From Ruditapes philippinarum (lineage: Eukaryota): a stretch of 64,000 nt of DNA. Location of the stretch: positions 1 through 64,000 of the forward strand of contig NW_026866095.1 in the NCBI RefSeq assembly GCF_026571515.1, given 5' to 3'. The position numbers and the translations under genes are program-made. Shown piece after piece: positions 230 through 45,184 of the stretch; the first letter of the stretch is position 1; every line of letters starts with the position of its first letter. The notes under the pieces are model-generated. The model was not told where the DNA came from. It searched no databases and saw only the letters and a program-made list of their open reading frames with translations.

Positions 230-6312
<6,083 letters not shown>

Positions 6313-10642: not shown

Positions 10643-10881
10643 TGAGCCGCGCCATGACAAAACCAACATAATGGGTTTGCGACCAGCATGGATCCAGACC
10701 AGCCTGCGCATCCGGGCAGTCTGATCAGGATCCATGCTGTTCGCTATCAGTTTCTCTACTTGTTATATAGGGTTTGTAAGCGAACCGCATGGATCCTGAT
10801 CAGTCTGCGCGGACGCGCAGGCTGGTCTGGATCCATGCTGGTCGCAAACCCATTATGTTGGTTTTGTCATGGCGCGGCTCA
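10643..10881. mobile_element. Palindromic MITE (family A)
   Basis: Long inverted arms tgagccgcgccatgacaaaaccaacataatgggtttgcgaccagcatggatccagaccagcctgcg / reverse complement. Other copies at 40533, 44067 and 56933. Confidence 0.9.
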
Positions 10882-11641: not shown

Positions 11642-11949
11642 AGGCCCATTATGCCTCAGAAATGCTACCAATTTTATTTCTCAAAACCTCTTTATGTTTG
11701 GTATCTTGTTATAGATTCTACACTTAAAAAACCTTATCAGCTGTTTCTCTGTTGGCAAGTGGTTTAATTATAGTAAGTATTTTGTATGGAAGTCAAAATA
11801 CTACTTTGTTTACATTTTGCTACCTTTAAAATACATTACTAGATGCTCAAGGCTAACATGCTTTAAATTTATTATCTAAACATTATTAAACACATGTTTG
11901 ATATTTCTAAAGAATTGAAAGGTATGATTTTTTGAGGCATAATGTGCTT
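11642..11949. mobile_element. TTAA-flanked non-autonomous DNA transposon (Kolobok/piggyBac-type ends), family B
   Basis: ttaa|aggcccattatgcctca ... tgaggcataatgtgctt|ttaa. Related copies at about 38510-38826, 42130-42442, 55122-55484 and 57855-58215. Confidence 0.65.
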
Positions 11950-18172: not shown

Positions 18173-20468
18173 ATTTAGAATAATTCAGTCAACCAATGTA
18201 TGCATTAATTATTTACCCTATTTACTTCTTAAATAGTTTCTCCGGCATTTCGCTTTTTCACAATTTTGTATCCATGTTGTAAACTGTATATGTATATTTT
18301 AAACGACACTGGAACATCTCAACCATTCAATTGTATGTTATTTTTTCTACCCGCATATTTGACCGCTTTTTATCGTCCATCCGTTAACGTTTCAAGCTCC
18401 AGTATAATTCCTATATACTGGATGTTTGTTTGTAGCGTCATGTAACCAGTCGTACCATACAGTTTATGTATGAACGTTGATCCATTGATCACCGATATAA
18501 TACACACAAGAGAACATTGGAAAACCCAAGTCCACTATTGTTACGGGGTATTGATTTATCCTTTTACAAAACTGTTTAACATAGTTGTTTACTACACGAT
18601 TCAGTATGTAAACTTCCTTATTTAACTTTTTATTAATTCTTTAGTATCGTACGATAAAATGTAAAATGTATTGCTAACAAGTCGCACCCTGTTCAGAATA
18701 GATGCTTTCATGCCGATGTGCACAGAATATTCAATTTGATTTTACAGAGACACGTGCTCGCTGTGATGTCATTTGTGTTGTTCACTTTAATACTTGTCAT
18801 ATCTTAAAACATTAATGTGCTAATACTTTGCATATTTTAAAACATTTATGTGTTTTCAATAAATTTATTTCTATGAAATGGTATAATTTCGAATCATTTG
18901 CTTGCGTGTCTTATTAAACTTAACATTATTGTATTATATTATATGATTATATATGCGTCTCCACTCAACTAAGGTCTAAAAGCCTAAAAACATAAAATTT
19001 GAAATTCTTACTTAACATTGAAAAATATGCAAATGATAATAAGAAATACTGTTACACTCAGAATTAAATCTAAAATCGATTTTAAGCGATATTTTGACTG
19101 ATTAAAATTAATATTTAGCGTTTAAATGTTTTTCATTTTTGGTCATTTTGCAAAATAAAATTGATTATTTTGGGGAAAAAAACGAAATAAGCAAATGACA
19201 CACGTTATTTGTACAGACACAAATCTCGAAAAAAGAAAAAAGAAGTTGTTATGTCAAAAATCTCTGTTGAGCCCCTTAAATTTCATGTAAATGTCATTTT
19301 TAAATAAGGCATTCAAATTAAGTTTTTTCAAATATATGTGTCACACATAATACAAAGTATTTTTTCCACAATTGTCACATGGTGTCACTGGTTTCAATTT
19401 GATATCAAGGTGTTCATGAGAACATATATTTACGCTTTAACCACTCTCCTAGACATTTGAATGAATTAACCAAATATGCATATATTCATTTGAAATAGGG
19501 GAGGCAATCCATTTGACAATGTAAACTTGCACACAAACGTTATATTTCTTTATATTTCTTCACTAAATAAACATAATATAAATCAATATATAATTAAAAC
19601 GTAGACAAATACTATTATTGCATAATTTGTTGAGTTAAGAAAAATAACGAATAAATATTTCTTTGTTAATATTTCAGTATGATTTGGGTTTGCAAAATTA
19701 TAAATTCAACATACATTGTACCATTACTTTGCTAATATTTAACTATACATATATTTATCCTAAGTTAACGTAATCGAAGTTTTACTGTATTAAAAATCAT
19801 TGAATATGTTACGCACGTGCGTCAGTAATACGAGTATATAATAAATGTATTTATCCTTGTTTCTACACGTTGTTATTTGCACGAAATTTACGTGCTGTGT
19901 TGATATATAAGTTAGCGGATCGCTATAGTTAATCATTCGAGCTCTTCACACTGCATTGCAAAGTCAATCACGTTTACAAGTTTGATCCCCCCTCCCCCAC
20001 CCGAAAGGCGATCATATTGATTTCAGCTTTTATAAGAAACATTTTTGAAAAAGTTAGATTGATATTTAATTTGAATTAAATTAATTAATTAAGTTATTAG
20101 ATATATTTGTTACAGAATTTCATATTTTGAGCCTTTTCAGATTTATTAATTATTATAGTGATGTATGTACTGGATATTTACAGAGTCAAACGATTATGTG
20201 TTATGTTTCTATATATTATATTTATGTTTAAATATAAAATGTTAAATAGAATAAATGCAATGTGAATGACTGATTCTACATATGTGTTTGTGTTTTATTT
20301 TCTTAGTTTCTGTAGACTAAAGGATAAATGATTTATTTCCGTTTGAGCGAAAGCGAATTAGGAAATAAAGTCGGTTAGATGTGTATATTATTGCACTATC
20401 CTCCAAAAAATAAAATGACTAATACTCTTCTGGAGGACTATGCATATAGGCAGCCGGTGGCGAGTATA

Positions 20469-23666: not shown

Positions 23667-26600
23667 TTAGTTCGTAACTGCGGTTTTCTGTTTGTTTGCA
23701 AAATTCCTGAGAATATCTCTGATTCTCCCAGAGTGCTTTGTAGATTTTGCCTCCTGAAAAATTATGTTATTTTTGCTCCTTTTATTTGTGTTATGCATGC
23801 ATAATTGTTTTTCTCCTAATTAATATATGTAGTAGAAATGCGTACCTTAAATATTATTATAATATTTTGTGAAAGTTATATTTTCTACAAAGACAATAGT
23901 TTCCTTGCAAGGATACAAAGAAATAATAAAATGAATTTGATCTCGTCAACTGAGACAATTTGTATATATATACCTCAATCTTTTCCCCTTTATCGCAAGA
24001 AGATGGCGGTGTGAACACTGATCTATCTTTTATTCCAGTGGTAAAGTCATATATATCTGCCACAGTTATGTCGACATTCTTGTTGCTGTCAAACACGTAC
24101 GAGTCGGACACTGACATTCTAACTGGGGTACATTCACCGTTATCATTATCTAGAGAAGGAGATGTTGACATTTTGATATTTAAACAAGTGTGATAACTCG
24201 GCAAACATCTTCAATGGAGCCGTAACAAACACGAAATATACCTTATATTATATATTATATTGCAACTATAATTTTGTTTAAACTGATATATTGAAATTTA
24301 AGACAAAAATTTATTTCATGTTAATACTAAACTAGAGATTCGCATGTCGGAGCATTTAATGCCCGAAGTATGTGGTGTCGTAAGATGAGCAGTATTAAAA
24401 TGAGAGAGGACACGATGGGAAAAATGTAAAATAAAAAAGATTTTACACTTAGTGTCAGTGTGCCCTTAACATTGTGACCTCAAAACCATAGGGGTTATCA
24501 ATTGCTATGGCTGTTGTCCTACCAAGTTAAACAACCTAGGCTTATTTCATCTCAAGTTGTTGATATGGTAAGGATTGTGTCAGTGTGACCTTTGATCTTT
24601 TGACTTCAATATTGATATCAAGTTAATCTGCTGGCCAAAGATAATATATCTTAGAATGTTTCACAAACTTTATATTCCGTCTCAAGGTATTGGTCGTCAA
24701 GGATTTTACTCAGTGCCACTGTGACCTTGAACTTTATCTTAATTAACAAATTTAGGTCAATTCTTTCCAAAGACAAAGTGCTATTGTGCGGACAATGATT
24801 TTACATTACATTAAGTATCCCTGTGACATTGACCTTTGATGCTATGGGCCAGGTTTTACTGTGACCAAGAACTTTGACCTAACGAACTAAAATCAATAAG
24901 GGTCATCTACTGGCAAGGCAATGACCAGTCTCTCTCCTAAGTATGAAGACAACACACCAAAAAGGTTTTAAGGTGTTCAACGGATATCGTTGTAACTACC
25001 AACAGACAGACGGACAGACAAGCGCCATATCATGGTACATGTACTAAGTATCTTTCAGGGGTATAAAATGGACTTAAAATGACGTCATCATTATTATGTG
25101 AGTGTCGTCGAGAAAAGTAATGTTAAAAGTGTAAAATTCAAGATAAAAACACATGTGCCTAAAGTGCAAATTTTGAAAAGCGACATTCTGTAGAGCAATA
25201 TTCATCACATCTTGATAATTTTTTCTCAACTTAAGACTTCACAATAAAGTTTACCTAAAGCAGCACCTCGCCGTGACAATCAAAGCGTTTGTTTCTCAAA
25301 GCAGTGGTTGTATTAAATTTACCTATTTACAATAAAATTTTGTACCTGACATGATGACTGTCACAGTTATTTCATATGGGTCCAGGTAAATACGGTCATG
25401 GAACATGAATGTCTTCATGGCCTGTCCGGTTTGTGCAAACATTCCTTCACTGATTAATGTAGCATTACCTGAAATGAGTTCATCAAAACAATCATAGAAC
25501 GATTCTACAGGTAGCTTACAATAAATACTGTACACTGTATAGAAATTTTAAAGGGTAACAAATTTTGCCATGATTCGAGTGCGCCAAACTGGACTTTTTC
25601 TGCTCAAAATGTGTAAATAAATGTACACTTGTCGGATCATTCTGATGTGTCACATTTTCATAATCATAATGTAACATTGTAATTAGAATCTGTCAATTTT
25701 ACTGTATAATTATGTATGTTATCAATAATAAATTATCATCATTACATTATTCTTGTACATTTGTATATGCTCTCATTATATACTTTGTTTATGCTCTGTA
25801 ACACCGCACTTTGGGGTCAAACCCCAAAGTGCGTTAAACTTCGCACCGCACTTTGGGGTCCAACGCACTTTGGGGTCAAAATCGAGAAATTGACCCCAAA
25901 GTGCGTTAATATGCTACATATCAACGCACTTTGGGTTCCAGAGGTCTAAAGGTGTCATCTGAGTTCTGCTTAAATACTGAGTACTGACTTATTTTCGATC
26001 TGCGACATTGAAATATTTGAGGTGGAGTTCAAGATGGCGGTCAATACTTTGATGATGCTTAAGTGATAAAAGTTTCATTAATTTTACCACTTGAAATATC
26101 TAAAAATTGTGTTCATATAACAAAATTACGGTGGCATAAAAGTGACATTTGCATTTTTTTTTTAGTTTTGCATACATATTTTTTTTGAGTTTTGCATTTT
26201 TAGTTTTGCATTCATATTTTATTTTAGTTTTTCGTACATATTTTATTTTTGTTTTTCGTACATATTTTAGCCAATCAAAACAGCCTTCACATCTCATAAC
26301 AGCCCATAGTTGAGTATAAAACTAGCACAGTGGTTTGGTCACATTTCGGCCCATTTTTGGAATCGGCCCAGTCGTTTTCGGCCGGGCAAGTCTGGTTTCG
26401 GCCGACCCTTTTCGGCCCATTTTTTAAATTATATGTATTTTATATAATTATTGTTTTTTTATTATTATATACTATTATATTAGTGTCTATTTGGAAAGGG
26501 CTGTTGATTGGTGATCAGTTATTATTCCATGAATATGCACCACTCAACCCCACCCCCTGAGAATAACGGGGAGAGGGGCATTGACTTTAAACCAAGCCGA

Positions 26601-29600
26601 CCACTGGTAAAATCTTAGCCCTACGGAGGATACTCAGATAATAACATTCCTGCCTTATGCCCCGGAACAGCGCAAACATCAAAACACGGTTATTTTTTTA
26701 ACCCCCACTCCCCTGGGGGCGAGAAAGGTGGTTACAAATGACTGGTGTATTACAATAATGCACAATAAAAGATCTAACTAGGTCCTTATATTCCATTGAT
26801 TTAGAAAAAATGCTTAAAGGTTTGAAGGATTAGCACATCCAGATAATTGGCAGAACTTATATGCCAGGTGTGCCGGCTCAAGGTCGGGGTCACACCTATA
26901 GGTCAAAGGATTAAGACTTTGAGTTTCATGTCCGCTCCTTATCTCCTAAACCCAATGAAGGATTTTCATGCACCTTGTGTCAAATGTTAACCACATCAAG
27001 ATCATATGCAGAACCTTTCTTTGGGTTACCGCGGACTATATATATATACAGTCGGCATCGTACTTGCGGCCACCTTTATTAAGCGACTTTTTTATTAAGC
27101 GGCCGCATAAAATCCCTCCCGATGATTTTTACTATTTAATTTAATTCCATTAAACGACTATTTTATATCGCGGCCAGCGGCCACTGAATGTCGGCCCAAA
27201 TGTACAAAATTAACTGTTAAAGTATCTATTAAACGGCCGTGACAAACAATCGTCCCTGCGGGCATTCTCACCTGTGTAATTAGCGAGTAGGTTAGATGTG
27301 TACAAGCAAACAAACAAATAATTTTCATGGTCATTGGTCACAAATAATTGTCGTTTAAAAACGAAATGAATAACAATTGCAATCGTTTCAAAATCGGATT
27401 TTCCGATCGTAATATTTATTGTGACATATTTTGTCAGAGCAATAACGTATCACAACACCGCGTTTGCATAGTTTTGTCACCTGCTGAGAGTGACCTCCCT
27501 GTATATATACACTAGAAAGTGTTGTTATTTTTTTGATTACTCCAAAAATGAAAATGTTGGTATTTGCAAATGGCAAATGGGGTACTGTAATTTACAGATG
27601 GCAAAGTGTTTGAAAATGGTGTTTTACAAATGGCGTAATTATCCAAACCTCTACTTAGCAAATGTATGGAAGCCTTGGAGGGTCACTTTTGAGTTTCGAC
27701 TTATATATTTATTTTACTATTTTCTTATGACTTTTGATTTATGACTTTTGATTTATGACTTTTGATTTTTGACTTATGGGTTTTGTTACTGTCCCACGTG
27801 CTTGTCTCATTATTTCCAAGGAAAATATGGCAGAATATGACAACGATTCAGACGAGGTAAGTTCATTTACCTAAGTTTCTTGGAGACTTATTTAAAAACA
27901 AAATATGTGGGTACATATGCAAGGACAGATGTTATTCTTATATAAGCCTTTTTAATTGATTAAGAAATTTTAAAGAAAATATTTTGCTTGCATTGCATTG
28001 CATTTGGTATCCATTCTTTATTTTGATTTCCGGAACAGGGATATATAATCTCAAATTGACATACAGCGTATGAATCAAACGCTTTATTTTTTTATATAGG
28101 TTCCAGTTTTAAATCCAAATCAGTATCGCATTGTTGTTTGCTGCAGTTTCAATCGGTTTCCACCCGTAGTTCATTCTTCGTCCATCTTATATTGATTATG
28201 GACCAAATTATAGGCCCTATTTTGACAAAGAAATTTGTAATTAAGAAGTTTCATGAAACATGGTATTTCAAAAACAGCTTTGAAACTTCACACACTTCAG
28301 ACACTTAAGTAAGAAACCTCTGTCAGTCTGAATTGCATTGTTATCAAAGTATGCCTCTTTTTCGACTTTGAATTTGTTGTTTAGAATTTTCATGAAAAAT
28401 GGTTTCGAAAAAACTATTTTAGCGATTCCTTTGAAACTTAAAACACATATTAATTGTGACATCTAAGGTCAATGATCAAGTTTCGTATGAGTGGCTCACA
28501 ATTTGACATACTTATGCCCATTTTTAAAGCTTAAATGTTTTGTCAGAAGGTTTATGAAATATGGTCCCATAAACAAGTTATGATATAATATTGAAACTTT
28601 ATTATTCACTTGTTCAATATCAATAACTTAGGACACCTACCAAGTACAAAGTACATGTTATTTGTATAATTATAAACTTTTGAATACAATTATGTATTAA
28701 GGGATTTTTTGTATTTCATTTTGTATATATATTTATTTCATTTCAATTGATATAACACATACTTTTAATGCTTTCAATTTAAATTCTAGTAAAGCTACAT
28801 GTAGGGATTAATGACGTGATGTCGAATGCTTTCAACCACAAAGCAGTTGCAAGAGCATCAGCAATACATATTTGTCAAGTTTTCGGAGCCAGTTTAGAAG
28901 ACTAAGAGGTTTCATTGCAAAACAGCGTTCGTTCCGAGTGGAAAGTAGTACAGTTTAGAAAATGCAAAATGTCCAAACACTGGTGATTTGGTTTTCTTCG
29001 TTATTGTCTATGGAAATATTCAGACATTTTCGGAATACGAGGGTTATCCTTTTCACACTTGTTTCAGACGCTCGACAACCCCACCATTTATTGTGGACGC
29101 TTATTGGAAACACACAATGTCACGTATCGCCACGTTTATTTTATACTGTCCATATCTCCAATATGGTATAAAACTTGTATCGATAGACAGGTCATCGTGA
29201 GACAAAGAAAGGTGTGAAAAATCATGAATTCACAATTCTGGCTTTCATAATTTTCAGTATTTGCCCATTGTAAATTAAAAAAAACTTATATGAAAGGTAT
29301 CGAAATCAAACTTTGTTTGTTCATATAGCTCGGCGAGGCAGTAAGAAACATACTTCTTAGCTATCATAAATTTTAGAAAGTCTTGTTTTTTATTGTTTTT
29401 TTATCTCAAAAACTGTTGAAGGCATCAACTAGAATTTACTGGCAGATATATCTCGGCCAGACAGAGTGCATTGTGTTGTTAACAAAACTTTTGATTATAA
29501 CATTAAATCGTTCTCCTAAGTTAAAAATTCCCTTTTTCGACATGGACATGCCGTGGGTTGGGGGTATGCTCATTACGAAAGACCATGAAATTTCCATTAC

Positions 29601-32600
29601 ATATAAAATTGGTCATACTTAAAAAACAAAACAAAAAAACGTGTGGACGTTAACTAGGTTAACTAGGAAATCTTTGGCAAGATACTGTGTTTGTTTTTTC
29701 TTTCTTTTGAACATTTAGAAATGAGGAAATAACGCTCTGACAATGATTTTAAAAATCTTGACTTCAATAATAATAATAATACAAACACTCTAGCGTTGCT
29801 AATTCACCTAATTTATCTTATGTTTTCAAAAGCTTTGTAAAAACACTCATGATTTTCTTAGTTTTTCATCAGAAACGTATCACAATGTGTTGTTTTGTAG
29901 AAACATTGCAAGATATATGTCTTCTGTGACGTACATATATATATATATATATTTACATATATGTAAATACTTGAAATTTTTGTTGATGGCAGTGTTCAAT
30001 TTTAGCTGTTCCTTAGTGTTAGCTTTTAAGTAAGGCATATGTGCTATTTTAGAAAATAATGCTAGCCTCTGTATTTCTTATCTCTTTTAAAAAAAAAAAT
30101 TAAATATAATGAAGCTCAAATGCAGTTTGTTTTGCATATCTAATACATTTGTTTTCTTATAAGACAACAATTTTGTTAAACAAAATAAAGCACGGTTGTA
30201 GAATTAGAAATGTTTGTTGTTATCTGTTTAAACGCATTTATTCCAAAAATTTATTGATAGCTCTGCCAACCTGTCACGGTCTAGACCGTGAGGTAAAAAC
30301 CTTTGGTAGCGTGGTCTCTCGGTAGATGTATATTTAGGTAGTCTGTTGAGGGAGTTGGCAGTTTACTTCTATAGTGATTGATATTCTATTTCTACTTTGC
30401 TCATTGTAACATCTTACATATAATTTTAATGGAACATTATCTCTACATAGATAAATAAATTCTCTGTAACATTTAAATACTGTTTATTCCGATAGTAAAT
30501 TGCAAGTTTATTTTGGTTATAACAAAGTTACAATAACACAATAATAAATTGTCAACAAATGAGGACAATGTATTTTTATCATTCAGGACCAGATTAAATA
30601 TGCATTTTTCTACTTACAACATTGGAAAATTGATATCTCACTCGACCTTCGGTCTCGCGAGATATCATTTTTCCACCGCTGCTCGTAGCAATATACAAAG
30701 CCTTAAAAAGCTACTACTACATAATATTCCGTTTATATCTCCTTTAATTTAATGTACATGTATTATAATGCCTAATGCTTGTTCCCTCTTTAATAGTGAA
30801 CACGGAAAAATAGCGCACCAGTCAACCGTGACTAAATTCAACAAAAAATTAAATAATCTATTTCAAGCTGTAAAATGGTAATGAAAAATTGTAATAAGAC
30901 TACACATCTAGAAAATAGCTCAGAACTGTTTAATCTGAATAAAAAATTCTTATTTATCAATAACAGTTTATTTACTTTAATACTTAATGCTGCAGACGGT
31001 ATTTATGAATGAATGTCCCGAATTAAACCTTCTATACATATGATTTTACAAAAACAATTGATGTTGATTCTTCACGTAAAAAAGATCAACTATCATATGA
31101 TAAAATCATATGAATGCAATAATTATAATGCAAAAATGAGGCTAGTGGCTAAATGTACTTGTAAACATTATATGACTTCAACACCACTCTCGGCTTATGT
31201 GCTCCCTTGCATTTGGTGACTGTGTCACAAATTTGCTTATTTTGCACTAATCTAAAATCAAGTAAAACTAATGTTTATACCAAGGTAAAGAGTAACAGCA
31301 AATGACAAAAGTTATAAGTCAAAAGTCAAAAGATAAAAGTCATAGGTAAAAAGTGATAAATTATAAGTGAATAGTCACAAGGCAAAATTTAATAAAAAAC
31401 GAGAAAATTTATTACAAAGATCAACTATTATTTTTGAAATAACAATCATATATATTCCTTTTACATATAGTTACCATAATACATTCTATAAAGTATGGTT
31501 GCTATTTGTTGCGAATGAATAAGACGTTTAAATCTAATTACACATACTTGAAATTACACGTATCACTTATATGTCACGGTACGAATCTATTCAGTAGATG
31601 AAGTGCACTCTCGGTCGGGACAGAACTAGCCCTGTAAGGGGGTTGCGGGTTCGAATCCCGGTATAGCTGCATATCTTTCTCCCCCTGTGGCATTTGGTAT
31701 AGTGGAAAGTGTCCCTGCCAGTCACGCGGGAGACCGAGGTTCTATTCCTAGCCGGGCAGCCTTTTTGTAACCAGGGCTTGATATAGAACAGATACAGGTT
31801 GTGGGTTTGAAACCCATAGGAGAAAACTTTTTTTTTCTTCGTTTTTTCTTTTAACAGTATTTTTGTATTTTTCTAACTATATTTAGATGGAAAAATATGC
31901 TCGTTTTCTATTATTATCATTTTTTACAGATATTCATTGCCTAATCAATGCTAAATATAAGAGCAAATACGACATATAACATTTCAAATGCTTTACATAT
32001 TACAAACAAGCCGGTAAAAGCCTTCCATATTTCTCAGAATGAATCAATATACTTCTAGAAAGATTTTAGCAAACTTTGAAACAAGCCCTTTGACAAATGT
32101 AATTTTAGTGATTTTCTAAATTTAGAATGATATGATAGAAATTGTTCAAATGGGTGGGGTAGAGAAACATTTCCATGCATATTTCTATCGTGTCGAGAAA
32201 AGTGATGCATTTAACATACATAGTTCATTACTAGAATGTTATTTTTTGCATCTAAACAAACAACACTTGCAAAACATGTTAAACAAGAAGATATTTTTAA
32301 GACTTTCAATACATGTATTTCTTTTTAAAAGCCTTTTTGATGTATATGTTCTGACTCATAATAATGCCTACAACTCGTAATCCGTACGGTAAATTTTGCA
32401 TACAGGTGTCCTTTAGGTATACCACTTAACAATGTTGTCAATTTTATATACAATCCCTTATAGTGCAAATTAGAGTGGTTATAACTTAAATGATAATTTA
32501 CAAATATATTGTAATTTGCTAAATATTTACAAACCAATATCTTAAAACAACCATAAAATGAAGTGAAATCGTAGACTATCGTCTTTATGATTTTAAAACA

Positions 32601-35600
32601 TCTTTTTTTGAAACTTAACCTATAGTAATCTAGAATATATAAATAACACACAATAAAAATTAGCCGTTTCAAAGCGTATTTATATTAAATCTACTCTCAA
32701 AATTAAATCGTTCAACTCGGTACACAGTTGTAGTGCTGTTAGGCGTCCAATGGCATCTGTAGATCTGGCTTCAGAAGGGGTGCTAATTCTACGAATTCCT
32801 CACATTGTCTTTTTGGGCGTGAATACATGTTCTTTGCAAATATATACGTCTCTCAAGTTAACTGCATTGCCGAAGTCGTGAGTTTCATACAGACCTGGTA
32901 CAAAAAACAGTGTATCAGGTTTACCATAAATAACAGAAGGTTTGTTGCCTTATTTCATGTGCAATCCGGTCTAACTCGGTTTGTATGAGGTCCATAAAGC
33001 AAAATTTTAAGTTCTCACATTGTATCGGGTCTAGATCATTAAATGCACATGTATCGCGTAAGTCTTTGAAAAAAATTAATCCACCAATGGATTTCATTTT
33101 GTCGTAATGTACACCACCACTTCTCAATGCGTTGGTTAGATGTGCTTTTTCCAACTACAACGCTTTGAGTACCAGCAATCGGATCTGTAGAATCGTGTCT
33201 GAAGTATTCCTGCAATAGTAAAGCAATGCAGTTTTCCCTACCAACATCACAACGTAGTATTGGGTGGGGGGACTTGGTATTGTTCATTAAAGGTGTCGAA
33301 AAGTATCTTGAAATAAGGCGTGGGTCGTTATTTGAATCCGAAACCTCTAACCATATTATTTTTTCTACTATACCTATTCACAGCAATATTATGGCTGTCC
33401 ATATGTCATATAAAACTGGTCCTTTGGCGTAGTATACGCGTCGGCATAAGCGATAAGCTTTCCGCACCTCAATATCAACTGGATCAAGCGCTCTCATTAT
33501 TTCCATGACGCCGTCCCCCTTGAGGTACATGTGGTAATCCAGCATTAACCTACGCCACATTGTGCGGTATCCTATGCATTGTCCACTTGTTTGTATTTCT
33601 CTGTTTATAACATCAGACACAGTCTCAAATGGAGTATATATTCCATTACGCCGTTTTAAATTTAAGCGTTTAAAAATTCTATTCACTGTACTTAATGACG
33701 TCGTAATGCCATGCCGTACCAGAAAGTACTCTATTATCAGCAGAGTTTTGTTTCTTATAAATGTTGAGGGTAGGTATCTTGGCACGGTAGCTTTGGTAAT
33801 GCCGAACAGTATAATGATGAAGACACAGATCAACATCAAGGTTTTCATCCTCGTTACCTTTTGTCTAGTAGTTGTGTCTGAAATAAGAGTATATCTTTTA
33901 TTTAAATCTTTATACATTCATAGTATATAAAATGGGTAAATCTTCTAGCTCCGTCTTTTAAAGATTGAAAGGTACGAAAAAATATAACATTTAAAATGCT
34001 AGTAGGATATTTTGTTCTAACTTGTCCTGTATCTATGTTTGTTCTTATAGACAGGAGTGATTTTAAGAAAATATTAATGCTAGATGCATTTTTAGTACAA
34101 GTAATATATTGAGTGTTTTAACCTAATATGGGTATGCTGAAGACGATGAGGGTGGATACCAAGAAAATAAAATTGACCTTGACCTTCTTAAGGGCAATTC
34201 AAAATGGCCGCTTAAAAATACTAAAATAGGTCATTAAAACTATGATACAATATGATGCAATTAATTATTCTTGTCAAAATCAAATGGTTATTCAATATGA
34301 TCAGATTTTAATGAGATTGGCAACCATATATAGCGATTATAAGCCTAATGGCTCAATTAACAGTATATACAGTACTGTTTTACTAGCACGTTAAGGTATA
34401 AGACTAAGATTGAAAAAAATCACTTTAAATTTTTTGTTAACTTGACATGTTTATCGAACAATAAACTTAGTTTATAAATATTACCAAAGAATAAATATCT
34501 CGTAATAACAAATTAATATTTCGTAATAACAAATTAATATTTCGTAATAACGAATCAATTCCGGGAGAAAGTGTGGAAAATGTCACTTCATGTGTTCCGT
34601 AATTTTCAACATTATTTGTAGCTATGATTTTTTTAAGTTGTTTATTTTGTTTTCATATATTTTGCACTAATTATGGTATTTATGGTTTAAAATGAGTATT
34701 TAAAATTATTTTGAAATGTTAAAAAGTGTCATTTCAATGCCATAAACACAACACAAACCGAGACAAAAAGTGTTTTAAAAATATACTGCGCCCCCACAAA
34801 AAACAAAACAAAACAAAAAACAACAGGTCTTAAAAAATGGCAACAGTAGGAATCGAACCATAGACCTCTCACACATCAGTCAATCACTTAACTGGCTGTG
34901 CTACTGCGGAAGTTACGATGACGTTTACAATTTTAACAGGTATGACTTTTACTAACATTAGTTTCATAGTTTTTTTTATTTTATGCTTTTCAGTGGATTA
35001 CTGATTTATTCGTGAAAATTATATTTGATAATTTCACAGTGAAAATTATCAAAATATAATTTCACACTTTTCAATGACGAAACTACTTTCTTAAGATTTT
35101 CCCCATGTGGTACCTCAATTTTATTTTTGCTGACAATTCTGACAATGTCAGGCTGTTTCGAGAGAAGCAAAGCTGAAATTGATAAATAACTTAAATGCCA
35201 AAAGTAATAAAAAGAAGAAAACTTACTTCTATTCATCTAAATTACCAATCACCATAAATATCGTCTCTTAATTTTTTTTGTTTCATTTTTACAATCTGAA
35301 AAATACATTCCTTCCACATGCAGAACTGCTCTTGATGACATTTGGGCATATTTAAGTTTACCATCTTGTTTAAAAATAAGTGACTATTTAAAGTTAGAGT
35401 AAAAAACAACAACAACAATAACAACACCATATTTTAATGGAGTCATAAAATGTCTGAAAGTGGGAGATTGCTACGTGTACTTGGTATACCATAGCAGCTC
35501 TCGAAAATTTTGGAATTCAGTCACGGTTTTGAAAAAATTCTACAAGAAGATTATCTCATCATTTGATATACATTAGCATTCCGAGTACCCTCCAATAAAT

Positions 35601-38600
35601 CCAGGATTTCTTAAAGTAACAGCATAGTTATCTATAAAATATTATTTGTTATAAATCGAGTAATATTTTCTTTGACCATATAATAGTCACGTGGGTTGGC
35701 TACATAGTAGAGGTGTTAAAATATAATTGAAATACACCCTTTGTTAGCCATTGAAATAGTATTTTATGTATAAAGGATTTTCAAAAATGGTTATTATTCA
35801 GAGCGGGCGCTATGGTGCAGTGGTAACACTGTCTGCCTACAAATCAAGGGGTCGTGAGTTCGATCCCCCGCTACTCCACTGAACGAATAAATGACTGCAA
35901 GACTGACAAAACCAGAACATAGAAACAGAATGACGGCAACGATAGAAAAAAGAGAAGACCTTAACGGAACAGGAAACAAGTACCGAAAATACAAGACCGA
36001 AGACGACGACCGATAACAGAAGGAAGAACAGAGACAAGGACCGCTAACAGAAGAAGAGAGACAGAGACCAATAACAGAAGAACTGACAACAAGCGAACAG
36101 AGACGAGGATTGATAACAGAAGAACAGAGACAGGGACCGATAACAGAAGAACTGACAACAAGCGAACAGAGACGAGGACTGATGACAGAAGAGCAGGGAC
36201 AGGGATCGATAACAGAGACGGAAACCGATTACAAAACAGGACAGGGAGTGATAACACAGACGAGGATTGATAACAAATCAATACAGACGAGAACTGAGAA
36301 CTGAGACTTATGAAGAACGAAGATCACGACCAATAACAGAAGAACTGACAACAGGAGAACTGCGAAGAGGACCGATAACAGAAGAACGAAGACGACGACC
36401 GATAACAGAAGAACTGACAACAAGAGAACTGCGTAGACGACCGATAACAGAAGAACTGCGACGAGGACTAATAACAGAAAAACGAAAGTCACGACCAATA
36501 ACAGAAGAACTGACAGCAGAGAAATGCGACACAAGAATAAAAGTCACGACCAATAACAGAAGATCTGACAGCAGAGAAATGCGACGAGGACTAATAACAG
36601 AAAAACGAAAGTCACGACCAATAACAGAAGATCTGACAATAAGAGAACTGCGACGAGAACCGATAACAGAAGAACGAAGACGACGACCGATCAGAAAAAC
36701 GAACACCAAAACCCAAGAGTGGGTTTATAATGTATATTTTGCATGCACACGTTTTAACCTCCTCATACATAATTACGCTGTGCAAAATAAGTAGGCATCT
36801 GAGTAGCCACTCTAATGCTTGCATAGAGTGTCAGATAAAATCTAGCAGATAGGACAGGAAAGAGTGTAGTGTTCGCTGCGTAAATATGTTTAAATTAAAT
36901 TTTCAGTACTATCTTTAATATTACTTCTATATTACTATTATATTAGCCTATAGAAAAATGTCTGCCATCTTGGATTTTTCGCCCATATTGGATTTTTTTT
37001 TAAATTATGTTTTGGTGTCTAATTTGTTTTTACCTAAACATACTTTGTGACAAATTTCAGACTTTTCCTTTCCTTAAAAATTTATTTGAAAAATTATCCA
37101 TTTATGATAAAGAAATTTGGCGGCCATTTTAGTGGTCATTTTAAATGGACATTTCAATGGTCAAGATCAAGTTTTTCAATTAGGTATCCAACTTTATCGG
37201 ATTAAGCATACCTTAAATAGGTCAAATACATCAAGATACCGCTTGTACTACAAAATGCCTCTAGCATCTTATAGAGAGCCAAATTTTCAAAATCAGTCCT
37301 GTCTATTAAGTGTTTTTTTCTCAATTGTTAAAATATACAACAAAATTAGTCATTGATGCTAAATGCAAATGTGCCTCGATCACAATTATAACTTTGTACT
37401 TGTGTGTATGAACATAGCACTTGCTGTTCATTATGAAATTGGTTAGCACTATCTTAGTACTTCAAAGAAATACTGATTCTGTGTTAGCTAAATAAAATTC
37501 TGAATTGCGATACATGTTTAATACTGTGAACCATGCCATTTTAAGACGTAAAACTTGTATTCCCTATCTACTTGTAAAACAGTTATTTGTTTGTTACTCA
37601 TGGACAGATTTTGTGATGAGGACAAAAATGTGTAAGCACTAATATAATGAACATATTTAGAACATAGAAGCTTGTACAAAACACACAGTCACACTTGTAG
37701 AATTAAAGTCTGATATATTACCACTATGGTATTATATCAAATAACATTAATTCCCTCCTTAACACATCATCTCCTCCATGACAACTCTCAATGAAATTAT
37801 TTAAAACGTTTAAAAAACATACCTGAAACCAAAGTTGCTGCTTTCATCTTCTAAAAAACGTGTAAAATGGGTTAGCCAAAAGTCATAAGACGTAAGTCAC
37901 AAATCAAGAGTCAAAAGTCGAAAGTCAAAAGTAAAATATCCGTAAGTCGAAACTCAAAAGTGACCCTCCAAGGCTTCCATACAAATGATCATGTACAAAT
38001 ATGTACAAAAAAACTAAAATAAATATGCATGCAAAACTAAAAAAATATGTATGCAAAACTAAAAAAATAAGTATGTATTCAAAAATATGTACGACAAACA
38101 AAAAACAAAACAAAAATATGTACGAAAAAAAAAGTATCAAAAAAATTGATTGCAAATGTCACTTTTATGCCATCGTTCGAAATACTCTAGTACAGAAATT
38201 GTGTATTCCTAAAATTAAAAGATGCTGCGAAAAATATCCCGTACTGTTAGTCATTTACTTGATAACTTTTGGTGCCATATTGAGCCCCATTTTAAATATG
38301 TTGGGAATGAAATAAAATGCAGTTAATATTTTTTCCCGAAGAACTATAAATATACTCTATTTCAATGTTCTGGTGAAACATCAAGTTTTTCGATCGGACT
38401 TTAAATAGTGATTTTTACAAATACATTATTAAGCTTATCAACACAAGCTTAAGGTTTTTGTAAGCTCCGTAACAACCGTTCGCTAGAGGCTTTTAATGGG
38501 AAATCTTACATACTCCTTTAGACTGAGCAAACATGAATTTTAAAATGTTAAAATAATGGTATCAGAGAAATGTAAGATGCTTGTTACCTGAATAAAATAG

Positions 38601-41600
38601 CGTTAAATGTGAAATTATTTGTCAAAAAAGTAGTCAAAACAATGTAGTATTTGATTTCCATATAAAATACTAATTCACTATAACTGTACTCAGCATTGCC
38701 AAAAAGCAACAGATGAAAAAGATGGTTCAGGTAATTGGCCAATGTGTATTTTTTGGATAATATAGAAGAACACTAAAATAAAAAAAGCTTTTAAGAAAAA
38801 CAAATAAAAGCATAATAGGCCTTTAAAACGTTATTTTTAACCCTTGGGGATCGATACCCACAATCTCCTCTATACCCCAGTGAGAATTTTACATTATTCT
38901 GAAGCTCCGCTCTAAATGTGCGACTACTTCATTAGTTGATATTTTAAGTACTGCCTGTACGGACTAACTACTTAAAGCCGCATCTACACCTAGTCAAGTT
39001 TCTTATGTATTTAGCTAAATAAATGGCTATTTCAAACATATTATCGGGCACATTTTTACTGAAATGTCTTACTAAGATTACCCAGAATTTATACCCTTGT
39101 ATATGCTAAGACTTTCATATTTCTATAAAATGTGTAAATAAAAAAGGGAAATGATGCATTTAACTAAAAAACAATGGAGTTAATGAAAGGTGTACATTCT
39201 TTTAAAATAAAAGGAAAATTTGAGAAAAAAATATTTAAAGTCTGAATAATTGATACAAAATCTTTATTTGGTGATTTATTTGGTGAAAGTTCTTCACTTA
39301 CTAAACATGACCATTTTAAATCCTACTGATTCTACTATAATTCGGGGCACATGTTTTGCGTCTATTTAATACCTTGAATTTTGTTTACCATTGGCGTTGA
39401 CTACAATATATTATTTAAAACATAATGAACATTAATTTTCTCTGACCCCAAAGTGCGGTCGTTTGCCTGATGTTAAAAAATGCATATGTACCTGTTTAAC
39501 GCACTTTGGGGTCGAAATTGGACCCCACATTGCGTAACGCACTCTGGGGTCGGACCCCAAAGTGCGTTTGACCCCAAAGTGCGGTGTTACAATGCTCTTT
39601 TTCCATACTTTATATATCCTGTCATTATATACTTTTATGCTCTCATGACATACTATGTATATGCTCTCATTACATACTTTTTACATGATGCTTTCATCAC
39701 ATACTTTGTATGCATGCAAATGTAAACTATTATTGTTTAATCAATATGCGACTTTGAACCGCTTCTCCTCACTCCAACCAGGGACTTTGTTCCTTTTCTT
39801 GTGAGGAAGCTATCCAGCCAGCTTACAGAACATCAGTGGTTTTACACAAGTGCCCGCGCGTGCCTGATACATTGCACGGAGGTGCACTTGCCAATAAAAC
39901 TATGTTATGCTATGATTAACAAAAAACTGTTGAAATATTTGCTACAAAGATGAGATAAATCGTCTAATATAAACACCTAGCTAATGAGCTTGTGACGTTA
40001 AAAGGTGCAAAACATCTAACGATCGATTGATTACTGACTTCAAAAAGCATTACAGATGGAAGATACAGCGCCTAGTCATTGTCATAATGAGTGCGTTCAT
40101 AGTAAATCCATTGGCTACCATTGGTAGGTTTATTTACCATTAGCACATCAATGGTACAAATGTTTACGGACAAAATTTGCCTTTTGTAGATTGATTTGCA
40201 GACGGACTAATTCTGCAAGTCTTACTTATGACGTCATTCATGTATGAAAATTAATTGATCATATAAGGCTGAAATAATATTACACATTTACAAAATGTAA
40301 AAAAGTGCAGATTTGCAAATTAACAAGTTATTTATCTTTTTTTTTGGATAAAATTCATTTATAACAATTCAGATTACAATAAAAACTGGACCGTACTTAA
40401 ATAGGACCAAATTATTATCAAGGTCAGGTGTCATTGTTGCAATAGGTTCACCTTTGGCAGCAATGTTTATTATATTGTCAATTACAATTAAAAATCCGTC
40501 CGGAGTAAATTTTCAACCAGTGGTACCAATATATGAGCCGCGTCACGACAAAACCAACATAGTGCGTTTGCGACCAGCATGGATTCAGATCAGCCTGCGC
40601 CTGCTACTTGGATTTTTTTTTTTAAATTATGTTTTGGTGTCTAATTTGTTTTTACCTAAACATACTTTGTGACAAATTTCAGATTTTTCCTTTCCTTAAA
40701 AATTTATTTGATATATCATCCATTTATGATAAAGAAATTTGGCGGCCATTTTAGTGGTCATTTTAAATGGACATTTCAATGGTCAAGATCAAGTTTTTCA
40801 ATTAGGTATCCAACTTTATCGGATTAAGCATACCTTAAATAGGTCAAATACATCAAGATACCGCTTGTACTACAAAATGCCTCTAGCATCTTATAGAGAG
40901 CCAAATTTTCAAAATCAGTCCTGTCTATTAAGTGTTTTTTTCTCAATTGTTAAAATATACAACAAAATTAGACATTGATGCTAAATGCAAATGTGCCTCG
41001 ATCACAATTATAACTTTGTACTTGTGTGTATGAACATAGCACTTGCTGTTCATTATGAAATTGGTTAACACTATCTAAGTACTTCAAAGAAATACTGATT
41101 CTGTGTTAGCTAAATAAAATGTTGAATTGCGATACTGTGCACCATGCCATTTTAAGACGTAAAACTTGTATTCCCTGTCTACTTGTAAAACAGTTCTTTG
41201 TTTGTTACTCATGGACAGATTTTGTGATGAGGACAAAAAATGTGTAAGCACTAATATAATGAACATATTTAGAACAAATCAGATTGTACAAAACACACAG
41301 TCACACTTGTAGAATTAAAGTCTGATATATAACCACTATGGGATTATATCAAATAACATTAATTCACTCCTTAACACATCATCTCCTCCATGACAAATCT
41401 CAATGAAATTATTTAAAACGTTTAAAAAACATACCTGAAACCAAAGTTGCTGCTTTCAGCTTCTAAAAAACGTGTAAAATGGGTTAGCCAAAAGTCATAA
41501 GACGTAAGTCACAAATCAAAAGTCAAAAGTCGAAAGTCAAAAGTAAAATATCCGTAAGTCGAAACTCAAAAGTGACCCTCCAAGGCTTCCATACAAATGA

Positions 41601-44600
41601 TCATGTACAAATATGTACAAAAAAAAACTAAAATAAATATGCATGCAAAACTAAAAAAATATGTATGCAAAACTAAAAAAATAAGTATGTATTCAAAAAT
41701 ATGTACGACAAACAAAAAACAAAACAAAAAATATGTACGAAAAAAAAAGTATCAAAAAAATTGATTGCAAATGTCACTTTTATGCCATCGTTCGAAATAC
41801 TCTAGTACAGAAATTGTGTATTCCTAAAATTAAAAGATGCTGCGAAAAATATCCCGTACTGTTAGTCATTTACTTGATAACTTTTGGTGCCATATTGAGC
41901 CCCATTTTAAATGTGTTGGGAATGAAATAAAATGCAGTTAATATTTTTTCCCGAAGAACTATAAATATACTCTATTTCAATGTTCTGGTGAAACATCAAG
42001 TTTTTCGATCGGACTATAAATAGTGATTTTTACAAATACATTATTAAGCTTATCAACACAAGCTTAAGGTTTTTGTAAGCTCCGTAACAACCGTTCGCTA
42101 GAGGCTTTTTAATGGGAAATCTTACATACTCCTTTAGACTGAGCAAACATGAATTTTAAAATGTTAAAATAATGGTATCAGAGAAATGTAAGATGCTTGT
42201 TACCTGAATAAAATAGCGTTAAATGTGAAATTATTTGTCAAAAAAGTAGTCAAAACAATGTAGTATTTGATTTCCATATAAAATACTAATTCACTATAAC
42301 TGTACTCAGCATTGCCAAAAAGCAACAGATGAAAAAGATGGTTCAGGTAATTGGCCAATGTGTATTTTTTGGATAATATAGAAGAACACTAAAATAAAAA
42401 AAGCTTTTAAGAAAAACAAATAAAAGCATAATAGGCCTTTAAAACGTTATTTTTAACCCTTGGGGATCGATACCCCACAATCTCCTCTATACCCCCAGTG
42501 AGAATTTTACATTATTCTGAAGCTCCGCTCTAAATGTGCGACTACTTCATTAGTTGATATTTTAAGTACTGCCTGTACGGACTACTACTTAAAGCCGCAT
42601 CTACACCTTGTCAAGTTTCTTATGTATTTAGCTAAATAAATGGCTATTTCAACATATTATCGGGCACATTTTTACTGAAATGTCTTACTAAGATTACCCA
42701 GAATTTATACCCTTGTCTATGCCAAGACTTTCATATTTCTATAAAATGTGTAAATAAAAAAAGGGAAAATGATGCATTTAGCTAAAAACAATGGAGTTAA
42801 TGAAAGGTGTACATTCTTTTAAAATAAAAGGAAAATTTGAGAAAAAAATATTTAAAGCTGAATAATTGATACAAAATCTTTATTTGGTGATTTATTTGGT
42901 GAAAGTTCTTCACTTACTAATCATGACCATTTAAATCCCTACTGATTCTACTATAATTCGGGGCACATGTTTTGCGTCTATTTAATACCTTGAATTTTGT
43001 TTACCATTGGCGTTGACTACAATATATTATTTAAAACATATTGAACATTAATTTTCTCTGACCCCAAAGTGCGGTCGTTTGCCTGATGTTAAAAAATGCA
43101 TATGTACCTGTTTAACGCACTTTGGGGTCGAAATTGGACCCCACATTGCGTAACGCACTCTGGGGTCGGACCCCAAAGTGCGTTTGACCCCAAAGTGCGG
43201 TGTTACAATGCTCTTTTTCCATACTTTGTATATCCTGTCATTATATACTTTTATGCTCTCATGACATACTATGTGTATGCTCTCATTACATACTTTTTAC
43301 ATGATGCTTTCATCACATACTTTGTATGCATGCAAATGTAAACTATTATTGTTTAATCAATATGCGACTTCGAACCGCTTCTCCTCACCTCAACCAGGGA
43401 CTTTGTTCCTTTTCTTGTAAGGAAGCTATCCAGCCAGCTTACAGAACATCAGTGGTTTTACACAGGTGCCCGCGCGTGCCTGATACATTGCACGGAGGTG
43501 CACTTGCCAATAAAACTATGTTATGCTATGATTAACAAAAAAACTGTTGAAATATTTGCTACAAAGATGAGATAAATTGTCTAATATAAACACCTAGCTA
43601 ATGAGCTTGTGACGTTAAAAGGTGCAAAACATCTAACGATCGATTGAATACTGACTTCAAAAAGCATTACAGATGGAAGATACAGCGCCTAGTCATTGTC
43701 ATAATGGGTGCGTTCATAGTAAATCCATTGGCTACCATTGGTAGGTTTATTTACCATAAGCACATCAATGGTACAATTGTTTACGGACAAAATTTGCCTT
43801 TTGTAGATTGATTTGCAGACGGGCTAATTCTGCAAGTCTTACTTATGACGTCATTCATGTATGAAAATTAATTGATCATATAAGGCTGAAATAATATTAC
43901 ACATTTACAGATTACAATAAAAACTGGACCGTACTTAGGACCAAATTATTATCAAGGTCAGGTGGCATTGTTGCAATAGGTTCACCTTTGGCAGCAATGT
44001 TTATTATATTGTCAATTACAATTAAAAATCCGTCCGGAGTAAATTTTCAACCAGTGGTACCAATATATGAGCCGCGTCACGACAAAACCAACATTGTGCG
44101 TTTGCGACCAGCATGGATTCAGATCAGCCTGCGCATCCGCGCAGTCTGATCAGGATCATGCTGTTCGCTTACCAACTCTATTACAAGTAGAGAAACTGAT
44201 AGCGAACAGCATGGATCCTGATCAGACTGCGCCGATGCACAGGCTGGTCTGGATATATGCTGGTCGCAAACACATTACGTTGGTATTTGTCATGACGCGG
44301 CCCATATGATACTTTAAGTTACCAATAGTAATTTAGTACCACTGTGAATACTCTGAACGCTTTCATTACACTTAGAAAACCTTTGTTCATTTAATTATTG
44401 AATATTTAAATAGTAAATTAGTGAGATATAAGAATTGTGAAATTATGAAATAAAATGATATGGCATTGTCAGATATAAATATATATTTAGCTAACCGGGT
44501 ATACATTCCTGATATAACGGCAATCCTACGTCAAGTTTATCACACGACCCATCTGCATACACACGCCATTGTTTATTCTAAAAATTGCAGAAAAATGAAA

Positions 44601-45184
44601 GAATGATTTTAGAGAAAATATACAATCACAAAAGTAATAATAAATAAATTTGTTACAACGCTCACATCTTCTTTTATATATGTAAGACAAGAAATCTATG
44701 TTGTTGGATACCATTGCACTTGTGTTTTGAATAACATATTCTTCATCATTAATACAATGTATAAATTTAATTATTTTAAATCAATCATATCACCAGATGT
44801 AGAAATGATACCACCGTATATAAATAATATAGCATAAAGGGTGTGTACCTGCTAAGTATAGATTCTTATCAATTAAAACATACTCACGTTTATGTAGTCT
44901 AAAATATCAATGGAATCCAGTATAACAGGAATTGGCCACACTGACATAAAGCTCTGAGAATGTTCGTGCACGTACGTCAGCTGATTAACGCCATCAAACG
45001 CTGTTTTAATTGTTCCGTTAGCGTATCCATATCCGTACCCCACGTCACCAGTTCCGATGTCAACAATACCCTGTGACATGAACATAAACGTCTCAAACTG
45101 GTTCGGGAAGCAACATATCGGGTTCGGTTTTACACTAAAGCATGTGATCACTTTTAGACATATCAATATAATGTATATTCTCAT
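23667..45184 (-). CDS. Ependymin-related protein (EPDR family), 254 aa, secreted/lysosomal. Exons 45184-44888, 44577-44496, 25468-25346, 24149-23974, 23753-23667.
   Basis: Signal peptide; CCFPNQF; AFDGVN; LDYINNKQWRV..GSCDK; ECIPGNAT; CTPV; FTTGIKDRSVFTPPSSC. These match ependymin-family motifs. Exon lengths 297+82+123+176+87 = 765 nt give an open frame with phases 0,1,1,0. Confidence 0.88.
24329..25068 (-). mobile_element. Old HINE-like element in EPDR intron 3
   Basis: aactagag start, degenerate tgtgacct(t)tgacctttga repeats, (GACA/GACG) microsatellite and ggggtataaaa end. Same layout as 7815-9191 in reverse. Confidence 0.7.
30623..30675. mobile_element. Palindromic remnant resembling a Crypton-type non-autonomous element
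   Basis: ggaaaattgatatctc-actcgaccttcggtctcgc-gagatatcattttttcc style hairpin; family assignment is from recall only. Confidence 0.4.
31688..31759 (+). pseudogene. tRNA-Asp(GTC)-derived pseudogene or element head
   Basis: gtatagtggaaagtgtccctgccagtcacgcgggagaccgaggttctattcc resembles metazoan tRNA-Asp, but the B-box is mutated and the acceptor stem is broken. Confidence 0.65.
32700..33860 (-). pseudogene. Decayed DDE integrase-core transposase (IS3EU-type)
   Basis: Frameshifted fragments: SGQCIGYRTMWRRL, MRALDP, RRVYYAKGP, FI*HMDSHN (WHxDG, first Asp; TGG>TGA), ILRCDVGREN (second Asp), GKSTSNQRIEKWW (Glu), WINFFKDLRD, LKFCFMDLIQTELD. Confidence 0.85.
35803..35879 (+). other. tRNA-derived Pol III promoter head
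   Basis: A-box tggtgcagtgg and B-box agttcgatccc; no complete cloverleaf. Confidence 0.6.
35900..36710. repeat. Strand-asymmetric modular minisatellite (ccgataacagaagaac + variable modules)
   Basis: More than 20 copies of (a/g)ataacagaa(g/a)aac. Explains the overlapping ORFs at 35961-36824. Confidence 0.9.
36988..44134. repeat. 3.6-kb tandem segmental duplication (A 36988-40600, B 40608-44134)
   Basis: Near-identical copies differing by scattered SNPs, an 11-bp and an about 80-bp deletion in B. The ORF track shows duplicated ORFs (37117/40739, 39480/43096). Confidence 0.97.
44067..44305. mobile_element. Palindromic MITE family A, full copy (truncated twin at 40533-40600)
   Basis: atgagccgcgtcacgacaaaacc ... 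tttgtcatgacgcggcccat. Confidence 0.9.

Follow-up and report, generated by a model that had tools for sequence, protein, structure and literature searches.

The locus described here raises the question of how a single intron of a clam gene came to be filled with transposons lying inside one another, and whether such a nest reveals how these transposons choose their targets. The window (the whole stretch of 64,000 nucleotides of Ruditapes philippinarum DNA that was analysed) carries an ependymin-related gene on the minus strand. Coding exon 1 (44888-45184), which encodes a hydrophobic N-terminus, is open from its ATG to a GT donor; exon 2 (44496-44577) has AG and GT boundaries and continues the reading frame of exon 1 into exon 3; exon 3 (25346-25468) is in frame, as is the acceptor of exon 4 (23990-24149, the 3' end being approximate). 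Exon 4 matches Pfam PF00811 at E=2.6e-5, its 24.8 bits falling short of the curated cut-off (32.3), and the Atlas look-alikes of exon 1 include two ependymin clusters, which at a score of only 0.77-0.79 constitute a lead. Intron 2 (25469-44495, minus strand, GT..AG) contains both the nest and a tandem duplication. The length of 19,027 bp given for it in an earlier note on this DNA is correct; removal of nest and duplication leaves 1,587-1,610 bp, slightly less than the roughly 1.7 kb claimed there.

The same note described three TIR transposons, each with a 6-bp TSD, and the ends and TSDs of all three sit where it placed them (two random 6-mers of the window are identical with P=5.8e-4). The three tiers are real, but the depth was underestimated: a fourth tier is present, and a transposase, a TA-flanked MITE and a decayed internal end had also escaped attention. 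The reading that we favor, with a probability of roughly 65%, is that the TIR transposons of the nest, at least four in number, inserted independently of one another into dispensable sequence, a short, A-rich target preference being the only likely bias.

The outermost element, A (25797-39591), is a non-coding TIR transposon with TGT..ACA ends, a perfect 26-bp TIR and subterminal repeats; about 1.74 kb is its own sequence (25797-26126 and 38184-39591). Its TSD is perfect, with ATGCTC at 25791-25796 and again at 39592-39597. A plus-strand 24-bp minisatellite lies on both sides, its left part (25768-25796) ending in the left TSD and its remainder following the right TSD (39592-39711). When A and one ATGCTC are deleted, the 24-bp atgctctcatta repeat is back in register, just as had been claimed for a degenerate repeat on the two flanks. 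The possibility that A is a solo LTR was ruled out by the 26-bp TIR and by the subterminal repeats in both orientations. IS3EU elements always have TA..TA termini according to Kojima and Bao 2023 (PMC10045372); A departs from this rule and is not filed as IS3EU or assigned to any other superfamily. The TIR of A had no matches in viral_contigs or genome_contigs, and no empty site of A occurs among the 15 of 898 joints listed, which is no evidence of absence.

Element B (26127-38177; own sequence 26127-27664 and 37988-38177) is non-autonomous. Its left end reads TACGG, 26 of the first 30 bases of its TIR match, and the right terminal base is mutated (AAC instead of TAC); its TSD, CAAAAT (26121-26126) and CGAAAT (38178-38183), agrees at 5 of 6 positions. 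Within B lies the TA-flanked MITE (27049-27501; joint 27043>27505 in three of four runs), whose CAG..CTG ends presumably mark it as of Tc1/mariner-pogo type. The 27-bp end of B recurs at five metagenome loci (L001-L005). L005 is a 98-bp element with a perfect TSD, TTTAAC/TTTAAC, and TSDs also flank L002 (AACTAC/AACTGC) and L004 (AACTAC/AACCGC); L001 and L003 have no clear partner, and no transposase was found in any of the five. Neither these loci nor the TIR of C supplied an autonomous partner with the TIR of B, the TIRs of B and C having only the frame TAYGG..RAR.GT.AC.TTT in common. The assignment of B as IS3EU-like is supported by its ends.

Element C (27665-37981, about 7 kb of it its own sequence) is a decayed, autonomous-type IS3EU transposon with TAT..ATA ends, a perfect 39-bp TIR (TATGG..CCATA) and the TSD CAAATG (27659-27664 and 37982-37987), whose 6-bp length is read from one copy. 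Contigs stop sharply at its right boundary, 37981. On the minus strand it carries a broken IS3EU DDE transposase (32689-33848), recognized by Pfam PF24764 (E=3.7e-6), by homologues, by alignment and by tblastn. The homologues number at least 100, the best having E=5e-106 among the matches listed, and the figure for a Mya arenaria cluster is 72%; D224, E265 and GKSTSNQRIE are invariant or nearly so in an alignment of 11 sequences. Lesions include a 13-codon deletion, a deletion plus frameshift around the first catalytic D (readable only in a shifted frame), one in-frame stop, and further frameshifts in the C-terminal third. By eye, the core has the motifs of IS3EU-1_CGi, IS3EU-1_DR and IS3EU-1_HM in the supplement of PMC10045372. 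In the portions of that paper that cover Crassostrea gigas IS3EU-1_CGi and zebrafish IS3EU-1_DR, the elements resemble C in their TA..TA ends, 6-bp TSD and core motifs WLE..NDP, R.D.G.EN and GKST.NQRIE, and resemble B and the orphan end E (below) in the TAY end with 6-bp TSD. They differ from C in that this copy is dead and interrupted and no second gene is recognized in it: a six-frame Pfam scan of A, B, D and the remainder of C, 18 frames in all with stops read as X, gave no relevant family (a lone match at E=0.28 was taken as chance) and no support for a HECT-like second gene suspected by eye. The IS3EU identity proposed in the earlier note is supported, since C has a matching transposase core and the end of B is also found, flanked by 6-bp TSDs, in other DNA. 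C also contains a decayed C-like right end on the plus strand (31250-31400, by local alignment to 37830-37990), with subterminal CAAAAGT repeats and an eroded tip. At 32029, a 10-base resemblance to TATGGAAGGC was put down to chance.

The fourth tier, element D (34048-37305), has an imperfect TIR of about 170 bp (71%) and the 3-bp TSD TTA/TTA. We take its TAG..CTA ends to be the Academ end signature; no coding match to an Academ transposase was found in its Pfam frames, and from the ends D may be called Academ-like only. AcademX, as treated in part of PMC10045372, has TSDs of 3 or 4 bp, which the 3-bp TSD of D resembles, D itself being without transposase; Academ has expanded in bivalves (PMC10294476). 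Within D lies element E (34490-34601, minus strand), the further orphan end that had been proposed: it is IS3EU-like, lies at 34601, reads TACGG..AAGTGACATTT, and has 21-bp subterminal repeats and the flank GAAAAT; no partner end was found. D also contains a tRNA-like head (SINE-type by eye) followed by a 27/42/69-bp tandem array (35800-36720, plus strand), with no tRNA gene or Rfam family recognized there. Smaller joints with no clear TSD occur at 26564>26830, 30564>31122, 31664>31846, 31783>32241 and 38337>38465.

B, C and D are separate insertions, because contigs of the A, B and C families join across the respective sites in all four other runs. A-family contigs skip B (joint 26124>38202), B-family contigs skip C (27664>37989, an empty site with one CAAATG), and C-family contigs skip D (34044>37306, with a 3-letter overlap). 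All of these families are multi-copy, with summed depths in the thousands compared to about 20 for unique flank. Containment puts A first, followed in turn by B, C and D, and this is an order only, not the place of each step. Conceivably, part of the nest was built elsewhere and travelled as a composite, A bringing B, and perhaps C too, into the intron. This scenario, which is compatible with independent insertion, would fit the mutations in the end and TSD of B beside the perfect 26-bp TIR and TSD of A, although two mutations versus none are too few for dating. An X2 flank contig that departs from the window at 25790 fits a haplotype without A, and L002 and L004 show a mini IS3EU-like element at the identical place in two copies of one host repeat. 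Yet neither A|B nor B|C appears as a multi-copy junction among the rows listed; one contig among the loose ends listed (18 of 110), from X15 and 50 letters long, passes from C into B, and its depth of 41.5 corresponds to about one or two loci. Large composites also transpose less often. We consider a ready-made nest unlikely.

Might the nest instead be an artefact of assembly, with repeats collapsed or misjoined? The region consists almost entirely of repeats, and the neighboring tandem duplication (36962-40600 and 40601-44134, plus strand), in which the right ends of D, C, B and A occur a second time, may itself be a false haplotype duplication. However, a misjoin would not produce TIR pairs whose TSDs match at each of four levels, contigs of other animals enter A from unique flank, and one crosses C|B with no differences; an artefactual nest is highly improbable. 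The flank-to-A contigs, which extend 21-29 letters into A (left side in three of four runs, right side in two of four), and the C|B contig all fall under the 31-letter bridging rule. The two copies of the duplication are 98.7% identical over aligned bases, with 19 indel events; the duplication is present in the assembly and was not seen in other animals. In X1 and X15 its unique sequence stands at single-copy depth, the contigs there resembling copy 2, and no contig among those listed crosses 40600/40601. The 3.6-kb duplication may thus be an assembly artefact, or else real. A transposase-driven origin was rejected because neither breakpoint coincides with an element end, one lying inside D and the other inside a MITE.

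The nest had been taken to suggest a preference for insertion into related elements. As a fixed-site preference this finds no support: flanks of C-type ends are heterogeneous (13 contigs in X1, 9+3+9 in X2, 7+4+7 in X15) and agree at 0.45-0.58, against 0.44-0.59 in equally many random flanks, in a test whose 271-bp stretch is blind to C insertions elsewhere in B or A. C-type ends also do not have most of their copies at one host site, as a target-specific transposon does. The similar CAAA-starting targets, earlier read as a sign of such preference, are more plausibly explained by a short bias in target sequence. Flanks of the form (N)AAA (stops at +4 as opposed to +0) are over-represented, at 9 of 18 in X2 and 7 of 14 in X15, compared to 0.008-0.053 (about 5%) at random; the +4 counts come from X2 and X15 only, the loose-end rows listed are 18 of 110, and the alignment scoring behind the flank counts is unspecified. 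The +0 flank groups have the consensus GAT in three of three runs. CAAATG is about five times as dense in B (0.0063 per base) as in the window (0.0012). The motif alone nonetheless accounts for little of the nesting, because SAWWTS is just 1.5-fold enriched in B and SAWW occupies 5% of positions; B-type flanks in other DNA (CTTAGC, AACTAC twice, AAAATG, TTTAAC) fit it poorly. Under the independent-insertion reading, an IS3EU transposase acting in trans on B would make a 6-bp staggered cut, mostly at sites starting [G/C]A[A/T][A/T]; B, richer in CAAATG, would be a somewhat better target; and insertions within an intronic element would likely be neutral and persist.

Several observations do not sit easily with independent insertion. 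Four IS3EU-like units, namely B, C, E and the decayed end at 31250-31400, all lie within 13.8 kb, and no B- or C-like end turned up elsewhere when the window was scanned for TIRs. By rough arithmetic, chance predicts about 0.2-1 B-in-A nests per genome and 0.6-80 nests of one IS3EU element inside another inside a TIR element of any type, according to the IS3EU content assumed. For the exact families it predicts only about 0.01-0.06 C-in-B nests per genome and, for C-in-B-in-A, 1e-5 to 1e-4, figures that are rough, being derived from depths, which are not copy numbers. This low expectation would suit a model in which IS3EU transpososomes are attracted to their relatives, for example by binding subterminal repeats, the nest being a footprint of that attraction; so would the fact that C adjoins the right subterminal array of B at its inner boundary, the decayed C-like end inside C and the orphan end inside D. 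The model must contend with C-type ends that have many unrelated flanks and no common site, with the TG..CA ends of A, unlike those of B, C and E, and with D, the direct host of E, which is not IS3EU. A-, B- or C-like flanks were found at none of the five metagenome B-type ends, which belong to another organism and align only in the end region. The locus was, moreover, selected from a scan of many windows, a strong look-elsewhere effect. Attraction is in our judgment doubtful, with perhaps one chance in five left to it.

Related systems bear on the target bias. GingerRoot belongs to the same lineage as IS3EU, as stated in the relevant part of PMC10045372. It has a 6-bp TSD and, in 5 of 77 intact elements, TG..CA ends like those of A, and shows no nucleotide preference and GC-rich TSDs (PMC6839031); A has no coding sequence and so is not placeable there. 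Styx of Zymoseptoria, an IS3EU-derived element of 7.9 kb (against about 7 kb for C) with a 6-bp TSD, is active, unlike the decayed C, and has no detectable insertion sequence preference; its degenerate copies are still mobilised in trans (PMC10853768). The absence of preference in Styx and GingerRoot was counted against a target-sequence bias; none is described for IS3EU in the sections of PMC10045372 concerned with it. A literature search found no publication on IS3EU nesting with target sites, nor on the Academ TSD with TAG ends. Nested MITEs were reportedly used by Jiang and Wessler in 2001 to infer insertion preference; the logic from nesting to preference is the same, and it needs genome-scale counts, the present case being one locus.

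Two clam families of IS3EU type are defined by this locus; in the main text of a bivalve TE survey, IS3EU has 0 occurrences. Nested transposable elements have swelled a 1.6-kb intron about tenfold with the reading frame intact. The short target-sequence bias is the one new lead, having been reported absent in the IS3EU-lineage Styx and GingerRoot. More tentatively, and we would not expect it to prove correct, clam IS3EU elements might combine a new target bias with attraction to the subterminal arrays of their relatives, giving pile-ups on one another's ends and composite, multi-ended elements like C with its decayed internal right end. Attraction to relatives' ends, if true, would amount to a rule of target choice in a superfamily that has been little studied.

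The nest of TIR transposons in intron 2 of the ependymin-like gene is real and well resolved, and its three claimed tiers were all found where the earlier note placed them. The outermost, A (25797-39591), has TGT..ACA ends with a perfect 26-bp TIR and carries ATGCTC on both sides. It contains B (26127-38177), which is flanked by the TSD CAAAAT/CGAAAT; the TIR of B matches at 26 of its first 30 bases, and the right terminal base is mutated. B in turn contains C (27665-37981), with a perfect 39-bp TIR and CAAATG on both sides (two random 6-mers of the window are identical with P=5.8e-4). There is also a fourth tier, D (34048-37305; TAG..CTA ends, TSD TTA), and the further orphan IS3EU-like end that had been announced is present as E at 34601, inside D, with flank GAAAAT. 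B additionally holds a TA-flanked MITE (27049-27501), and inside C its own right end occurs a second time, in decayed form (about 31250-31400). The data allow that A transposed with B already on board, as an end of B is decayed and those of A are perfect, though on counts too low for a verdict.

The transposase remnant of C (33848-32689, minus strand), with D just upstream of its start, matches Pfam PF24764, and in a comparison by eye its core agrees with the IS3EU-1_CGi and IS3EU-1_DR proteins shown in the available supplement of PMC10045372. It has at least 100 homologues; the best among those listed is 72% identical in alignment and lies in a cluster with Mya arenaria proteins. The gene is broken by deletions, one stop and several frameshifts, and Pfam found no other coding match in 18 translated frames of the rest of the nest. 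The transposase begins with a hydrophobic, signal-peptide-like stretch (33780-33848, minus strand), shared by most close homologues and odd for a nuclear enzyme. As far as the available text of the sources goes, IS3EU ends are always TA..TA with a TSD usually of 6 bp, and AcademX TSDs measure 3-4 bp (PMC10045372); the fungal IS3EU end reads TAYGG..CCRTA (PMC12730594), GingerRoot ends are TA..TA in 72 of 77 and TG..CA in 5 (PMC6839031), and for bivalves Academ is described as expanded and IS3EU goes without mention (PMC10294476).

Contigs from four sequencing runs of other animals (X1, X2, X4, X15) were compared with the window over 24800-40750. Among the joints listed (15 of 898), all four runs contain joints that skip B (26124 to 38202), C (27664 to 37989, with GCG in between) and D (34044 to 37306, overlapping by 3 letters), and three of the four skip the MITE. 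Thus, every one of the inner elements was inserted into a family of which copies lacking it occur as well. For A itself, contigs from the unique flank reach 21 letters inside its left end (X1, X4, X15) and 23-29 letters inside its right end (X1, X15), under the 31 letters of the bridging rule. One X2 flank contig departs from the window at 25790; a haplotype lacking A would account for this, but is not demonstrated by it.

The host gene lies on the minus strand, with a frame open across four exons; it is called ependymin-like from a PF00811 match (E=2.6e-5) under the curated cut-off and weak Atlas look-alikes. Its intron 2 (25469-44495) has exactly the 19,027 bp claimed, and the 24-bp flanking minisatellite does come back in register once A and one ATGCTC are taken out. 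Removing the nest and the tandem duplication shrinks the intron as predicted, to 1,587-1,610 bp rather than about 1.7 kb. An adjoining gene has a Kringle-domain exon (46972-47274, plus strand; PF00051, E=1.4e-15). Exons at 210-944 and 1351-1689 (plus strand) resemble, by a 17-letter protein motif, an AAA-ATPase of the NVL/VCP type, and a hydrophobic ORF (17768-18184, minus strand) looks claudin/PMP22-like from its motifs FVTPGW... and VSAGVW, with zero Pfam matches at E<=0.1.

Across about 3.5 kb, the two copies of the duplication (36962-40600 and 40601-44134) are separated by 47 substitutions plus 19 indel events, and both breakpoints lie inside elements. The junction, which shows a short microhomology (CTGC) with D, cuts a very high-copy palindromic MITE at 40600 (10630-10901, 40521-40600, 44055-44321, 56921-57083). 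Unique sequence in the duplication has a depth of 18-24 vs 19-24 in the single-copy flank in X1 and X15, and an ambiguous 35-41 vs 18-27 in X2. No contig among those listed crosses 40600/40601, and an X1 contig lacks the 79-bp insert of the first copy, like the second. The odds are about even between a duplication private to the sequenced animal and two haplotypes joined in tandem. Other repeats are a dispersed one of ~300 bp with GCATAAT..GGCCTTTAA ends, presumably a Kolobok-like TTAA MITE (11636-11947, 55125-55486, 57857-58209 and, inside A, 38513-38825), and a satellite-like array of eight 145-bp units at 92% (7904-9074), with related sequence at 24859-25020.

The 27-bp end of B also occurs at five metagenome loci, apparently from another animal, since alignment is confined to the end region. 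One (L005:392-489) is a 98-bp IS3EU-like mini-element with a perfect TSD TTTAAC and a strongly decayed right TIR, and another (L002) a 202-bp element with AACTAC/AACTGC; a clear partner end was looked for in L001 and L003 and not found. An IS3EU-like mini-element of ~190-200 bp occupies the identical position in two host-repeat copies (L002:1284-1980, L004:1358-1878), and is a passenger amplified along with the host repeat, which in L002 is bounded by 80-bp inverted repeats.

The earlier note further proposed that IS3EU-like elements prefer related elements, citing similar CAAA-starting targets. Flanks of C-type ends were compared over 37925-38195 in three runs, with 18 of 110 loose-end rows listed. 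Among these, C-type ends stop at 37981 with varied flanks (13 contigs in X1, 9+3+9 in X2, 7+4+7 in X15), and one contig, from X15, crosses the C|B junction. Flank agreement is 0.45-0.58 vs 0.44-0.59 for equal numbers of random flanks, so C is not tied to one target site within B. The opening letters of the flanks are non-random and suggest a [G/C]A[A/T][A/T] bias: the +0 groups have the consensus GAT in all three runs, and among listed contigs stopping at +0 or +4, 9/18 in X2 and 7/14 in X15 stop at +4, an (N)AAA flank. Four scoring schemes put the random expectation for this ratio at 0.053 or less, though the actual scoring may differ; if 0.15 is assumed instead, the binomial P is still 5e-4 (X2) and 2e-3 (X15), for runs that share insertions and are not independent. 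Because of these shared insertions, the assumed scoring, +4 rows from X2 and X15 only, and the pooling of left and right ends, the bias is a lead, not a logo. The targets do resemble one another, and a short target bias is a likelier cause than self-targeting, which stands unproven. In their available text, related groups are described as having no nucleotide preference (GingerRoot, PMC6839031) or a 6-bp TSD without sequence preference (Styx, PMC10853768); Helitron self-insertion is a marginal parallel (PMC5148889). We found no literature joining IS3EU, nesting and target site, and Repbase Reports, which describe most IS3EU families, may already record a target consensus.

That the nest reflects attraction of IS3EU elements to relatives is unlikely, at a probability of about 0.2. 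Four IS3EU-like units within 13.8 kb, and the placement of C at the edge of the subterminal array of B, keep it in play. By chance, 0.2-1.1 cases of B in A, 0.01-0.06 of C in B and 1e-5 to 1e-4 of the exact triple are expected, a rough guide from summed depths rather than copy numbers, with an assumed genome of 1.2-1.4 Gb; for any IS3EU element nested in another that itself lies in a TIR element of whatever kind, the expectation is 0.6-80 (assumed IS3EU share 0.2-4%). The locus was chosen for its striking appearance out of a scan of many windows, and the density of CAAATG in B is five times the window average, that of the broader SAWWTS only 1.5 times. Together, these points neither demand nor preclude such attraction. 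The nest was probably built by successive cut-and-paste insertions, with a 6-bp staggered cut of weak A-rich bias; an IS3EU transposase acting in trans may have moved B, and the nest would survive because insertions within an intronic element are neutral. The structure and function of IS3EU are, in the accessible part of one account, largely unexplored (PMC11934779); the superfamily is already known, and the clam nest adds to it.
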